A DNA stretch of 64,000 nt from an uncultured Candidatus Binatia bacterium (GCA_964475125.1 CAYYWP010000002.1:2036-66035); one strand, 5' to 3'; positions 17,241-31,543 are shown, counted from the stretch's first letter. The notes: generated by a model not told the origin, from the letters alone. Program-made: numbers and translations.

Positions 17241-19349
17241 ATGGGATTTCGCGTCGGTGTGGATGTCGGCGGTACGTTCACGGATTTCCTCGTCGTCGAT
17301 GAGCGCGGCAATGCCGATATCTTCAAGACTTCCACCACCCCGGGCGATCCGACACGGGGGTTGTTTCGCGGTCTCGAGAAGGCCGCCACCGCGCGGCGGC
17401 TGACGCTGGCGCAGTTTCTCGACCGCGTCGATACCGTCGTGCACGGCACCACGATCACCACCAACGCCACGCTCACCGGTGACGGCGCCATCACCGGGTT
17501 CGTGACGACGAAGGGATTCCGCGATGTGCTCAACATGCGCCGCGGCCTCAAGGAACGGCAGTACGACAAGTACGCGCCATCGGCATCGTTGGTGCCGCGC
17601 CATCTCATCCGCGTCGTCGACGAGCGCGTCTCGGTCACCGGCGCGGTCCTGACGCCGCTCGACGAGCATGACGTGCGGGAAGCCGCGCGCTATTTCCGCG
17701 ACCATGGGGTCGAGGCGGTCGCGGTGTCGTTCCTCTGGTCGTTTCTCTACCCGCGGCACGAACAGCGCGTGCGCGAGATCCTCGAGGAGGAACTGCCGGG
17801 CGTGTACGTCTCGCTGTCCACCGAGATCCTGCCGCAGATCCGCGTCTACGAGCGCCACAGCACCACCGCGCTGAACGCCTATGTCGGCCCGGTGCTGACG
17901 CGTTACCTGACGCGGCTGCAGGCGGAGCTGCAGCAGCGCCGCTTCCGCGGCAAGCTGCTGATCATGCAGTCCAACGGTGGCGTCATGTCTCCGCAAGTGG
18001 CGCAGCGCTTCGCCTCCAACACCCTGCTGTCCGGGCCGGCGGGCGCGCCGATGGCGGGCGTCTTTTACGGTGGGACGCACGGCTTCCGCAACGTCATCAC
18101 GGTCGACATGGGCGGCACCTCGTTCGATGTCGCCCTGGTCAAGGATGCGCAGCCCGGCCTCACGACCGAGGGCACCATCGGCGGCCACCGCATCGCCTCG
18201 CTGATCCTCGATATTCACACCATCGGCGCCGGCGGCGGCTCGATCGCCTGGCTCGACGGCGGCGGCATGCTGGCCGTCGGACCGAAGAGCGCCGGTGCCG
18301 AGCCCGGACCCGCCTGCTACGGGCGCGGTGGCACGACGCCCACGGTGACCGATGCGCAGTACCTGCTCGGCTACCTCGATCCGGCGCTGTTCGAGGCCGG
18401 GGAGATCAATTTCGATCGCGAGGCGTCGCGCCAAGCGGTGCAGCAACACGTCGCGGACCCGCTCGGGATGAGCGTGGTCGAAGCCGCCTCCGGCATCTAC
18501 GACATCGTCAACAGCAACATGGCCGCCGCCCTCGGCGTGGTGTCGGTGCAGCGCGGCTACGATCCGCGCGAATTCGCGCTCGTGGTGGCCGGTGGCGCCG
18601 GGCCGATCCATGCCGCGCCGATTGCGCGCGAACTGCAGATTCCGCTGATCCTGATCCCGCGCGCGTCGTCGGTGTTCTGTGCGGCGGGGATGCTGATCTC
18701 CGATCTCAAGCACGATTTCGTCCGCACCTACGCGCGCGACTTCGCGCAGGTGCGCGCCGCGGAAGTGCGCGAGCTGTACGGCGAGATGGACACCGCCGCG
18801 CGGCGTGTGTTGAAGGCCGAGCACGTTCCGGCGCGCCGCATCGAGATCGATTACACCGCCGATGTGCGCTACGTCGGTCAATTCAACGAGGTCGAGGTCG
18901 CGGTGCCCGGCAAGGGCCGCATCGACGCCAAGGCGTTGGCGCGCATCGCGGAGGATTTTCATGCCCGCCATGACAGCCTCTACGGCTACTCGATGCGCGG
19001 CGCGCCGCTCGAGCTCATCAATCTGCGCATCACCGCGCGCGGGCGCACCGACAAGCCGAAACAGGAAAAGATGAAGCGCCGCGGCCGGAGTGCCGCGCAG
19101 GCTCGCATTGGCAAGCGCAAGGCGTATTTCGCCGGCCGTTTCCGCACCGTACCGGTGTACGACGGACTGGCGCTCGCCGCCGGCAACCAGGTCTCGGGCC
19201 CGGCGATCGTGGTGCAGCCGACCACGACCATCATCGTGCCGCCGGATTTCGATTTCCAGTGTGACGACTTTGGCAACTACCTCATGTATGCCAAGGGCCA
19301 GAATGTGGCCCGGCTCTGCAAGGCATTGCGTCAGGAGGGGGGAAAATGA
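17241..19349 (+). CDS. hyuA: hydantoinase A / N-methylhydantoinase A / oxoprolinase family (ATP-hydrolysing subunit)
   Basis: MGFRVGVDVGGTFTDFLVVDERG..., with the ASKHA fold GxDxGGT motif at the N-terminus and again mid-protein (ITVDMGGTSFDV). 702 aa, typical for HyuA. The stop overlaps the next start by 4 nt. Confidence 0.9.
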   Translation: MGFRVGVDVGGTFTDFLVVDERGNADIFKTSTTPGDPTRGLFRGLEKAATARRLTLAQFLDRVDTVVHGTTITTNATLTGDGAITGFVTTKGFRDVLNMRRGLKERQYDKYAPSASLVPRHLIRVVDERVSVTGAVLTPLDEHDVREAARYFRDHGVEAVAVSFLWSFLYPRHEQRVREILEEELPGVYVSLSTEILPQIRVYERHSTTALNAYVGPVLTRYLTRLQAELQQRRFRGKLLIMQSNGGVMSPQVAQRFASNTLLSGPAGAPMAGVFYGGTHGFRNVITVDMGGTSFDVALVKDAQPGLTTEGTIGGHRIASLILDIHTIGAGGGSIAWLDGGGMLAVGPKSAGAEPGPACYGRGGTTPTVTDAQYLLGYLDPALFEAGEINFDREASRQAVQQHVADPLGMSVVEAASGIYDIVNSNMAAALGVVSVQRGYDPREFALVVAGGAGPIHAAPIARELQIPLILIPRASSVFCAAGMLISDLKHDFVRTYARDFAQVRAAEVRELYGEMDTAARRVLKAEHVPARRIEIDYTADVRYVGQFNEVEVAVPGKGRIDAKALARIAEDFHARHDSLYGYSMRGAPLELINLRITARGRTDKPKQEKMKRRGRSAAQARIGKRKAYFAGRFRTVPVYDGLALAAGNQVSGPAIVVQPTTTIIVPPDFDFQCDDFGNYLMYAKGQNVARLCKALRQEGGK

Positions 19350-29518: not shown

Positions 29519-31543
29519 ATGGTCGAGAACCCGCTTCTGGCCACTCCCGCGCGCCCGCTGCCTCGCGCCCTCGGCGTAATTGGCGCCGGCACCATCGGCC
29601 CGGATATCGCCTACTACTTCAAGAGCGAGATCGCCGATCTGGCGCTGGTGCTCGTCGATATCCGCCAGGAGGCGCTCGATGCCGCGGTGGCGCGCATCCA
29701 CGCGTATGCCGAGAAGGCGGTGCAGCGCGGCAAACTGAGTGCGCGGCAGGCGGAGCGGGTGCGCGCCGATATCGTCACCGCCACGGATTACGCCGCGCTC
29801 GCGGCGTGTGACTGGGTGCTGGAGGCGGCGACGGAACATCTCGGGGTGAAGCGGAAGATCTTCGCCGACGTGGAAGCGGTCGTGGGCACGGACACGCTGA
29901 TCACCTCCAACACCAGTGCGCTGCCCGCCGCGCGCCTGTTCGCAACGCTGAAGCATCCCGAGCGCGCCACGGTGACGCATTTCTTTGCACCGGCGTTCCG
30001 CAATCCCGCCGTGGAGGTCGTGCGCTGGCCGCGCGTGGACGCCGCCGCGATCGATTACCTCCGCTGGGTGTTCGCCAGCACCGGCAAGGTCCCGTTCGTC
30101 ACCGCGGACGAGGTCTGCTTCATGCTCGACCGCATCTTCGACAATTGGTGTAACGAAGCCGCGGTGCTGCTCGGATGCGGCGCTACACCGGCGCAGGTCG
30201 ATACGGTGGCGGCCGAGTTCGCGCACGCCGGACCGTTCTTCGTCCTCAACCTGGCGAACGGCAATCCGATCATCATCGAGACCAACACGCTGCAGATGGA
30301 GGAGGGGGAGCACTATCGGCCGGCGGCGATCTTTCATACCGCGGGCCGCTGGGAAACCGTGGCGCCCGGCGCGCGCGTGCCGGTGCCGGACGATCTCTCC
30401 GCCGCGATTCGCGATCGGCTCGCCGGCATGCTGCTGTCGCAAGCGGTCGATATCCTCGATCGCGGTATCGGCACGCCCGAGGATCTCGATCTCGGCTGCC
30501 GCCTCGCCTTCGCGTTCCGCCAGGGGCCGCTCGAAATGCTGCGCGAGCGCGGCGAGAGCGAATGCCGGCGTCTCCTCGATCGCCTCGCGCGCGAGCGACC
30601 CGGCATGCCGATGCCGCGGCGGGCGCTGGCGGAGTACACTCGATTCTGCCGTTTCATCCTCGTCGACGATGTGCCTGCCGGCGACGGGCAGCTCGTCAAG
30701 CTCCTCACGCTGCGTCGTCCCGAGGCGCTGAACGCGATCCATGACGAGATGACGGACGAGATCCTGGCGACGCTTCGCGCCTTCGAGAACGAGCCGTGTG
30801 TGGCCGGTTTCGTCATCACCGGCTATGGCACGAAGGCATTTTCCTCCGGCGCCGACATCGGCCGTTTTCCGACCCTGCTCGGCGACGCCGAGGCGGCGGC
30901 GCAGTACGCCCGGGACTGTTCGCGGCTGCTGGTGTATCTCGATTCCTGCGCCAAGCCGGTGGTGGCGGCGTTGAACGGCATGGCGCTGGGAGGTGGCCTG
31001 GAGCTCGCGATGCGCTGCCACGGCATCGTCGCGGTGGCGCATGCGCGCGTGCAGTTGCCGGAAATCACGCTCGGCATCGCGCCGGGCATCGGTGCGCTGG
31101 TGGTGCCATACCGGCGCTGGCCGGCGGCCGCGGAACTGTTTCATCGCATGTTGCTGCGCGCGGAATCGGTGCCGGCGCCGGCGGCGGCGGCGCAGGGTGT
31201 CGTCAACGCCTGCGTGGCCACGCAGGCAGAACTGGTGCCGGCGGCGGTGCACTGCGCACTGGCCCTGGGCACTCGGCGCCATCGTGTCGCCGACGCGCCG
31301 GTTCGTGTCCCGCTGGTGGTCGCCGACCCGCAACCCAGGTCGGCGGTCGGGCAGGAGCTCAGTGCCGCCGTGAGCGCGATCGTGCGCGGCGCGATTGCCG
31401 ACGGTGCCGCGGCGGCGAGCTTTGCTGAGGCACTCGAAATCGGCTATCGCGCCTTCGGCGCGTCCGCATGCACGGCGGCCGCGAAAGAGGGCGTCAGCGC
31501 TTTCGGCGCCAGGCGTACGCCGGATTTCGCCAAGACCGGGTGA
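29519..31543 (+). CDS. bifunctional 3-hydroxyacyl-CoA dehydrogenase (N-terminal) / enoyl-CoA hydratase (C-terminal)
   Basis: N-terminal Rossmann GVIGAGTIGPDIAYYF with the 3HCDH fold. C-terminal crotonase LTLRRPEALNAIHDEMTDEIL...FSSGADIGRF...ALNGMALGGGLELAMRCH. The domain order is inverted relative to FadB. Start at the in-frame ATG 29519; the longer ORF starts at 29321 inside the previous gene. Confidence 0.8.
   Translation: MVENPLLATPARPLPRALGVIGAGTIGPDIAYYFKSEIADLALVLVDIRQEALDAAVARIHAYAEKAVQRGKLSARQAERVRADIVTATDYAALAACDWVLEAATEHLGVKRKIFADVEAVVGTDTLITSNTSALPAARLFATLKHPERATVTHFFAPAFRNPAVEVVRWPRVDAAAIDYLRWVFASTGKVPFVTADEVCFMLDRIFDNWCNEAAVLLGCGATPAQVDTVAAEFAHAGPFFVLNLANGNPIIIETNTLQMEEGEHYRPAAIFHTAGRWETVAPGARVPVPDDLSAAIRDRLAGMLLSQAVDILDRGIGTPEDLDLGCRLAFAFRQGPLEMLRERGESECRRLLDRLARERPGMPMPRRALAEYTRFCRFILVDDVPAGDGQLVKLLTLRRPEALNAIHDEMTDEILATLRAFENEPCVAGFVITGYGTKAFSSGADIGRFPTLLGDAEAAAQYARDCSRLLVYLDSCAKPVVAALNGMALGGGLELAMRCHGIVAVAHARVQLPEITLGIAPGIGALVVPYRRWPAAAELFHRMLLRAESVPAPAAAAQGVVNACVATQAELVPAAVHCALALGTRRHRVADAPVRVPLVVADPQPRSAVGQELSAAVSAIVRGAIADGAAAASFAEALEIGYRAFGASACTAAAKEGVSAFGARRTPDFAKTG

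Follow-up and report, generated by a model that had tools for sequence, protein, structure and literature searches.

The described enzymes closest to the subject of this work, an operon that couples the hydantoinase-type genes hyuA and hyuB to a split B12-dependent acyl-CoA mutase (mutL and mutS) in a 64,000-nucleotide stretch of DNA from an uncultured Candidatus Binatia bacterium (GCA_964475125.1 CAYYWP010000002.1:2036-66035; hereafter "the window"), are two-subunit lactamases and members of the methylmalonyl-CoA mutase (MCM) family. Caprolactamase CapAB (6YRA), the valerolactam lactamase OplBA and N-methylhydantoinase (7HK5) show the highest sequence similarity to HyuAB and have in common with it a two-subunit layout, ATP motifs in the A subunit and an Asp-His-Asp-His site in the B subunit. 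In CapAB, these ATP motifs (DxGGTxTD, DxGGT, GxxPGP) and the B subunit's Asp-His-Asp-His tetrad have been defined and mutationally validated (PMC8453981). MCM and isobutyryl-CoA mutase (ICM; IcmF) belong to the same protein family as MutL and MutS (PF01642, PF02310), and 2-hydroxyisobutyryl-CoA mutase HcmAB (HCM, 4R3U) is split, as mutLS is, into a large subunit and a small B12 subunit, with a MeaB-type chaperone in related loci.

Both kinds of enzyme are brought together in the iaa cluster of anaerobic indoleacetate degradation (Aromatoleum aromaticum / Azoarcus evansii), which follows the same logic as the window operon: an ATP-dependent two-subunit lactamase, CoA activation, a two-subunit B12 mutase, an acyl-CoA dehydrogenase (ACAD) and beta-oxidation. 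In A. aromaticum, the ligase IaaB activates the indoleacetate, opening of the oxindole lactam is proposed for the ATP-dependent, hydantoinase-like IaaCE, IaaL shifts CoA, the B12 mutase IaaGH converts (2-aminophenyl)succinyl-CoA into (2-aminobenzyl)malonyl-CoA, and IaaF then oxidatively decarboxylates this product (PMC8360864; PMC8453981). Orthologues of IaaF make up an ACAD branch of their own, in which YEG is replaced by GGG (PMC8360864). A text search found no literature joining a hydantoinase or oxoprolinase directly with an acyl-CoA mutase, and the iaa precedent surfaced through a general search on acyl-CoA mutases. Given IaaCE and IaaGH, the pairing of a lactamase with a B12 mutase, which an earlier note on this DNA had put forward as part of a candidate novel route, has a precedent and is in principle not new (PMC8360864, PMC8453981).

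The window operon occupies 17241-31543 on the plus strand and comprises nine open reading frames (ORFs) with high third-position G+C, as in real genes, the window as a whole having a G+C content of ~68%. Families were assigned by Pfam and NCBIfam profile matches for all nine proteins, which confirmed the gene set proposed earlier for these coordinates but not its order: the real order is ligase, ACAD, thiolase, ligase, and the ORF at 24920 encodes the ACAD rather than a ligase. We read the operon as a putative self-contained module for the catabolism of a stable cyclic amide (of lactam, imide or hydantoin type) that bears or releases carboxyl groups, and give this general mechanism a probability of about 0.6. 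A cyclic amide acid is the probable substrate because a ring-opening amidase, a B12 mutase and a beta-oxidation set are joined in one operon. The genes are:

hyuA, 17241-19349, plus strand: 702 aa, ATP-binding large subunit (PF05378, PF01968, PF19278)
hyuB, 19346-21187, plus strand: 613 aa, metal-containing hydrolytic subunit (PF02538 at 515 bits)
mutL, 21184-22881, plus strand: large, substrate-binding subunit of an adenosylcobalamin (AdoCbl)-dependent acyl-CoA mutase (PF01642, TIGR00641)
mutS, 22900-23304, plus strand: 134 aa, small B12-binding subunit (PF02310, TIGR00640 at 113 bits)
lig1, 23301-24923, plus strand: 540 aa, AMP-forming acyl-CoA ligase (PF00501, PF13193)
acad, 24920-26716, plus strand: 598 aa, FadE/DmdC-type ACAD (ACAD N, M and C domains plus PF12806)
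thl, 26713-27915, plus strand: 400 aa, divergent thiolase (PF00108, PF02803)
lig2, 27912-29453, plus strand: 513 aa, second AMP-forming acyl-CoA ligase (PF00501, PF13193)
hadh-ech, 29519-31543, plus strand: 674 aa, fusion of an N-terminal 3-hydroxyacyl-CoA dehydrogenase and a C-terminal enoyl-CoA hydratase (PF02737, PF00725, PF00378, PF16113)

Start and stop codons overlap by 4 nt (ATGA) at six of the eight junctions, hyuA/hyuB included. The 4-nt coupling described in the earlier note does not extend to mutL/mutS, separated by an 18-nt gap with a Shine-Dalgarno-like GGAG, nor to lig2/hadh-ech, where the gap is ~65 nt, shrinking to 11 nt should the gene begin at the GTG at 29465. Given that homologues of MutL measure 540-550 aa, its start may be 21259, which would yield 540 aa, rather than 21184. 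The nine genes are real, their arrangement is non-random, and they form a single catabolic module.

Evidence that this module is not an accident of gene order comes from a scan of GTDB with one genome per species, which returned 80 mutase loci. In all 17 informative loci with a mutase at least 61% identical to that of the window, hyuA and hyuB immediately adjoin the mutase, whereas in the other 65 loci, where mutase identity is 47% or lower, no homologue of HyuA/B occurs within 10 kb (Fisher's exact test, p = 6e-18). The 17 loci belong to Gammaproteobacteria, Betaproteobacteria and Bacillota (uncultured Gammaproteobacteria, Aromatoleum, Sterolibacterium, Glaciimonas, Rhodocyclaceae and Syntrophomonadaceae). 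The same linkage is found on further contigs from Steroidobacteraceae, other Gammaproteobacteria and Solirubrobacterales (Actinomycetota), as well as on L090, a frameshift-ridden contig reached via an orphan protein (see below). A Rhodospirillaceae contig (L091) carries a clade mutase with no hyuAB in the retrieved stretch, and was left out as uninformative. In L008, L016, L085 and L090, hyuAB is divergently transcribed yet still adjacent to the mutase operon. Since the synteny is kept across phyla even with divergent hyuAB, hyuAB and the mutase appear to be functionally linked, as the single module of the earlier note had implied.

The minimal common core of these loci is hyuA-hyuB-mutL-mutS-lig1-(MeaB)-ACAD, and the thiolase, lig2 and the fusion gene are usually present too. 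One Syntrophomonadaceae locus (L018:1540-9765) has two tandem hyuB-hyuA pairs upstream of its clade mutase, one like the window type and the other like the betaproteobacterial type, which suggests that two distinct HyuAB lineages can serve the same mutase.

MutL matches PF01642 with 555 bits (positions 2-509 of the 512 in the profile), TIGR00641 with 511 bits against a cut-off of 304, and the methylmalonyl-CoA mutase model NF006944 with 425 bits against a cut-off of 876. Its nearest solved structure is that of HCM (4R3U, 379 bits, 40% identity), while MCM structures score 293-323 bits (37.5% identity for P. shermanii MCM, 1REQ). Residue-by-residue structure alignments and a 200-sequence MAFFT alignment gave the following substitutions in the active site:

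MCM position 89: canonical Tyr, Gln in the clade (MutL motif WTRRFQVGF)
MCM position 207: canonical Arg, Thr in the clade, with a 4-residue insertion just before it (MutL insertion GGPL)
MCM position 244: canonical His, Asn in the clade (MutL motif GYNLRETG)
HCM position 117 / MCM position 116: canonical Asp / Ala, Thr in the clade (MutL motif ITIDLPT)

The motifs quoted in the earlier note (RRFQVGF and TSYGFDSD) are present in the mutase, and the absence of the Tyr/Arg pair, which it had reported, holds after alignment: Gln and Thr stand in the two columns, and a canonical MCM active site is not seen. The specificity residues of ICM are a Phe/Gln pair, and this pair is absent as well. His244, which is common to the solved MCM, IcmF and HCM structures and in MCM is the catalytic general acid, thought to assist the rearrangement, is missing from MutL. 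HCM has Ile90, Asp117, Gln208 and the His where the clade has Gln, Thr, Thr (with the 4-residue insertion) and Asn. Of the two specificities suggested earlier, a new one thus fits the signature, and an ICM/HCM/PCM-like one does not, since His244 is lost and the insertion is present.

Across 119 database homologues (75-87% identity), this signature (Gln/Thr/Asn/Thr plus the 4-aa insertion) shows essentially no variation, and it is kept in relatives from Syntrophomonadaceae (Bacillota, 61%) and Solirubrobacterales (Actinomycetota, 63%). In a neighbour-joining tree, the clade is monophyletic and sits on a long branch apart from the MCM-like (Arg/His) and ICM/HCM-like (Gln/His) groups, HCM itself and the hyuAB-linked clade occupying separate branches. 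Its deeper sisters in that tree, L057 (Alphaproteobacteria, AYNIRETG) and L022 (Desulfobacteria, LYDLRETG), are both uncharacterised and lack His244; they were checked as possible iaa-type loci, and no hyuAB lies near either of them. Judged by sequence, then, the mutase is a new clade of uncharacterised specificity that is neither MCM, ICM nor HCM. A scan of 1.84 billion representatives at 50% identity gave a single full-length match above 50% identity (P0121, 54%), and no plasmid match to the window mutase reaches 60% identity, the best among the matches listed having 43%. The clade mutase is abundant in soil, groundwater and wastewater metagenomes.

The loss of three canonical residues raises the question of whether MutL is a mutase at all. 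According to this alternative, it would be a B12-binding pseudo-enzyme or a non-isomerase, and the operon a fatty-acid-type beta-oxidation set beside an oxoprolinase. Apart from the replacement of His244 by Asn and the loss of Tyr89 and Arg207, the alternative draws on the 150 best representatives of the scan (P0121-P0270): only 73 have His in the MCM-244 column, with alignment errors possible in the most divergent rows, and many uncharacterised lineages among them read xYN or xYD there, so the family may hold non-canonical activities. The same count means that the canonical triad describes the studied enzymes, not the whole mutase family. Against the alternative, the B12 motifs of MutS are intact (DxHxxG as DCHDTG at residue 15; SxL and GG as SFL...CGG), the MCM-family hallmarks GY, TxQND, QT and DE are retained in the MutL alignment, the MeaB chaperone is co-encoded in relatives, identities of 75-87% across classes indicate strong purifying selection, and the coupling to hyuAB is strict. 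We therefore consider a non-mutase improbable. Given the complete B12-binding subunit and the presence of MeaB inside at least seven homologous operons, MutL and MutS are likely to form a working AdoCbl enzyme.

The remaining operon proteins are consistent with CoA activation and beta-oxidation. Lig1, which occurs in essentially all homologous clusters as part of the conserved core, matches NCBIfam PRK06187 with 503 bits, above its cut-off, and has feruloyl-CoA synthetase as its nearest solved structure (8WEV/8WEU, 318 bits); for Lig2, this is the malonyl-CoA synthetase MatB (4FUQ/4GXQ, 242-248 bits). The ACAD, of FadE/DmdC/FadE5 type, has its best PDB matches in 8PNS/8PNG (385-399 bits) and 6IJC (331 bits), and keeps the catalytic YEG with its Glu (IYEGTSG). 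The thiolase scores 173 bits against TIGR01930, below the cut-off, and has all three of the patterns that we take to be catalytic: Cys (ISQACATSA), His (GHPQG) and Cys (FQGCAAGD). Homologues of the fusion protein in L001, L086 and L085 measure 671-675 aa.

These proteins also bear on whether the operon is an iaa orthologue or variant, which would take indole-3-acetate or 2-oxindole-3-acetate via (2-aminophenyl)succinyl-CoA and (2-aminobenzyl)malonyl-CoA to 2-aminobenzoyl-CoA. The enzyme logic is the same (PMC8360864; PMC8453981), MarR regulators occur in homologous loci, Lig1 is nearest to feruloyl-CoA synthetase, and the orphan accessory protein of relatives is predicted to have a weakly V4R/DmpR-like fold. 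The differences, however, touch most of the pathway. The ACAD of the operon is the long 598-aa FadE/DmdC type with YEG, as opposed to the decarboxylating, GGG-motif IaaF and its orthologues (PMC8360864). CoA is handled by two AMP-forming ligases rather than by the family-III CoA-transferase IaaL and the binding protein IaaM, neither of which has a counterpart in the operon: PF02515, the family-III CoA-transferase family, is found in none of the nine operon proteins, and the two PF02515 genes of the window lie ~26 kb downstream in a different cluster. The mutase pocket lacks the carboxylate-binding Arg/Tyr pair that would be called for to hold the free carboxylate of an arylsuccinyl-CoA. HyuAB scores 527/369 bits against CapAB, closer than expected for IaaCE, whose subunits are reported as 37%/36% identical to CapAB. 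As an indirect indication, the clade matches of at least 61% identity in the species-representative scan do not include the iaa-bearing strain A. aromaticum EbN1. Judged by gene content and motif descriptions, the window operon is not an iaa cluster, and degradation of indole-3-acetate by this route appears unlikely. Our analysis instead describes it as an uncharacterised variant of iaa-like pathway logic, built on different enzyme clades and with a new mutase clade.

The evidence for a cyclic amide comes mostly from HyuAB. HyuA has its best PDB matches in CapA (6YRA_A, 527 bits) and N-methylhydantoinase (7HK5, 513 bits), compared with 358 bits for acetophenone carboxylase and ~273 bits for acetone carboxylase beta (5M45); HyuB scores 369 bits against CapB (6YRA_B), 129 bits against ApcD and ~50 bits against acetone carboxylase alpha (AcxA). 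The top NCBIfam models are caprolactamase alpha for HyuA (719 bits) and beta for HyuB (422 bits), neither protein reaching the 1000-bit equivalog cut-off of these models (NF050156, NF050157). HyuA has the three-domain architecture with the ATP motifs DVGGTFTD, DMGGT and GAEPGP, and when HyuB is aligned to 6YRA_B, the CapB metal tetrad Asp41/His99/Asp102/His124 corresponds to a conserved D/H/D/H (4/4). HyuB also has a basic N-terminal extension of ~36 aa that is absent from most homologues. No gene for a third subunit of carboxylase type (gamma/epsilon) was found in the window operon or in the homologous operons examined, and in the window operon hyuA and hyuB have no additional ORF between them or next to them.

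By these scores, HyuAB is placed in the two-subunit lactamase/hydantoinase branch and not in the ketone-carboxylase branch, and the lactamase-branch scores, the conserved motifs and tetrad, and the missing third subunit make ATP-dependent hydrolysis of a stable cyclic amide its most likely activity. Of the roles proposed earlier, lactam or hydantoin ring opening agrees with this placement, while ketone carboxylation is disfavoured. A route that starts with carboxylation of a branched ketone by HyuAB, giving a beta-keto acid, and goes on with CoA ligation and thiolysis to a branched acyl-CoA that the mutase linearises, is very unlikely: although the HyuAB family includes acetone and acetophenone carboxylases, caprolactamase itself requires bicarbonate (PMC8453981), and the thiolase and ligases of the operon would suit it, it is opposed by the score differences (HyuB ~50 versus 369 bits, HyuA ~273 versus 527), the caprolactamase models, the lack of a gamma/epsilon gene in the window or homologous operons, and a hydantoin-racemase-family gene beside hyuA in relatives, which suits a cyclic amide with a stereocentre and not a ketone. 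The genomic context of HyuAB, a B12 mutase and beta-oxidation, differs from the aminotransferase/dehydrogenase route used for caprolactam.

A second hyuAB pair, also listed in the earlier note, does exist in the window (HyuA2/HyuB2, 44979-49012), and shares just 40% and 33% identity with HyuA and HyuB of the operon. It lies in a second catabolic cluster (43679-63261, plus strand), together with a luciferase-like monooxygenase, two large subunits of xanthine-dehydrogenase-family Mo hydroxylases, an MmgE/PrpD protein, an HpcH/CitE-like lyase, two family-III CoA-transferases, a short ACAD that reads LAP at the YEG position and, as seen by tblastn and by eye alone, acyl-CoA-synthetase-like and crotonase-like ORFs. 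From its gene families, this cluster looks like one for N-heterocycle degradation.

Relatives of the operon differ in their accessory genes, which include MeaB, a MarR regulator, a TonB-dependent receptor, and a racemase or orphan protein. MeaB lies inside the operons of L005, L008, L010, L016, L019, L085 and L086, orthologues of the TonB-dependent receptor are ~56% identical in four genomes, and Betaproteobacteria loci add a FadH/OYE-type flavoenzyme. Beside hyuAB or mutS stands either an Asp/Glu/hydantoin-family racemase, which adjoins hyuA in L006, L019 and L086, or the orphan protein. The orphan family measures 212-232 aa (for example L001:12049-12735, L085:9244-9894 and L092:6997-7695), has 37 database relatives, all annotated as hypothetical, and matches no Pfam or NCBIfam model. 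It adjoins the clade mutase in every context examined, and hyuAB too where the contig is long enough (not L091). Its AlphaFold2 (AF2) model (pLDDT 85.7) weakly resembles V4R/Bet3/DmpR sensor folds.

Beyond the observed gene families, intact motifs, mutase signature and hyuAB-mutase synteny, we infer in what order the steps run and to which chemical class the substrate belongs. HyuAB would open the ring at the expense of ATP, HyuA phosphorylating or otherwise activating the lactim and the metal site of HyuB hydrolysing it, and an AMP-forming ligase would convert the ring-opened, alpha-branched acid into its CoA thioester. The two-subunit AdoCbl mutase would then shift the thioester carbon to the neighbouring carbon, turning the branched skeleton into a linear one open to beta-oxidation, and the FadE-type ACAD, the hydratase/dehydrogenase fusion and the thiolase would carry out one ordinary beta-oxidation turn, with the MatB-like Lig2 re-activating the released (di)carboxylate.

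This scheme constrains the substrate in several ways. It would be a cyclic amide of such stability that its hydrolysis needs ATP. The racemase gene that adjoins hyuA in relatives makes a racemisable stereocentre beside the ring carbonyl probable, and the two ligases suggest at least one carboxylate, probably two. The Gln/Thr/Asn/Thr pocket suggests that the migrating carbon has a neutral, polar group beside it and not a carboxylate. The substrate may also be aromatic or hydrophobic, the hints being MarR, the TonB receptor, the feruloyl-CoA-synthetase-like Lig1 and the V4R-like helper, all of them weak. Branched ketones, pivalate and 2-hydroxyisobutyrate, which the earlier note had put forward, found no specific support. 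It is about an even bet that the clade mutase catalyses an undescribed acyl-CoA rearrangement on a substrate with a neutral polar (amino, amido or ureido) substituent left by ring opening, with the Gln/Thr/Asn pocket replacing Tyr/Arg/His, and that together with HyuAB it constitutes a new, widespread, transfer-spread route for the mineralisation of cyclic amides.

Several observations weigh against a self-contained cyclic-amide module. The loss of His244 could mean altered chemistry, or a lower or different activity. The window operon is a compact version, without the MeaB, the racemase or the ~220-aa orphan protein of its relatives: MeaB is absent from the whole 64-kb window, as is any member of the orphan family, and the operon flanks in the window have no regulator, MeaB or transporter gene. 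No cobalamin riboswitch or other RNA element was found at Rfam gathering thresholds over positions 15000-36000 (operon and flanks), and counts of sigma-70 promoters and internal terminators are at chance level, with none convincing enough to delimit the transcription unit. The operon has no aminotransferase, deaminase or amidase gene for nitrogen disposal. Finally, omega-aminoacyl-CoA esters tend to re-cyclise, which is established chemistry; CoA activation may thus take place at a carboxyl other than the ring carbonyl, and the steps could follow another order.

Two more specific candidates were considered and dropped. Caprolactamase-like SktIJ, which adds to the precedents, is strongly induced by skatole in a Rhodococcus cluster (bioRxiv 10.1101/2024.12.29.630347), and a 3-methyloxindole/skatole route is not favoured on chemical reasoning alone, as 2-aminophenyl-acyl thioesters should re-lactamise. 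The cluster is carried by metagenome-assembled genomes of Sterolibacterium and Steroidobacteraceae. The ATP-dependent 25-hydroxysteroid dehydratase of Sterolibacterium, considered as a perhaps hydantoinase-like enzyme, was abandoned, since PMC7411048 identifies no such gene.

The operon is flanked upstream by RHS-repeat proteins and a divergently oriented secreted protein, and downstream by an AhpC/redoxin-like gene. Directly upstream, the plus-strand region 2702-15733 holds long ORFs, with open frames of ~1740, ~1690 and ~615 codons; the last of them (13904-15733), the sole one scanned, has an RHS-repeat match, and the region may be a toxin or polymorphic-toxin locus. The secreted protein is encoded on the minus strand at 15817-16965, and its 5' signal-peptide end with adjacent sequence (16800-16965) is repeated ~14.6 kb upstream at 2115-2273 with ~92% amino-acid identity. 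The downstream gene (31655-32449, plus strand) is a membrane-anchored AhpC/TSA/redoxin-like ORF with a single in-frame TGA at 32087-32089, which falls exactly at the first Cys of its W-C-P-F-C redox motif (FYRGHW*PFCVSEL). A perfect 8-bp hairpin starts 16 nt downstream of this TGA, its folding energy not being significant in comparison with shuffled sequences. Instead of being a pseudogene, the ORF probably encodes a selenocysteine (UxxC) protein.

To our knowledge, only a handful of specificities are known for B12 acyl-CoA mutases (MCM, ECM, ICM/IcmF, PCM, HCM/RCM and the iaa enzyme), and each newly found one that we know of has opened a catabolic pathway and provided a tool for biotechnology. 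The clade described here presents a different active-site solution, including the loss of the His thought to assist the rearrangement, and is genetically locked to an ATP-dependent lactamase. Because the gene neighbourhood restricts the candidate substrates to cyclic amide acids, the function of the clade is directly testable. In the survey of representatives, about half of the diverse members lack the His, so much of the mutase family is unexplored. If the proposed reading is true, the operon would represent a new route by which stable cyclic amides are mineralised, one that is widespread and has crossed phyla through gene transfer.

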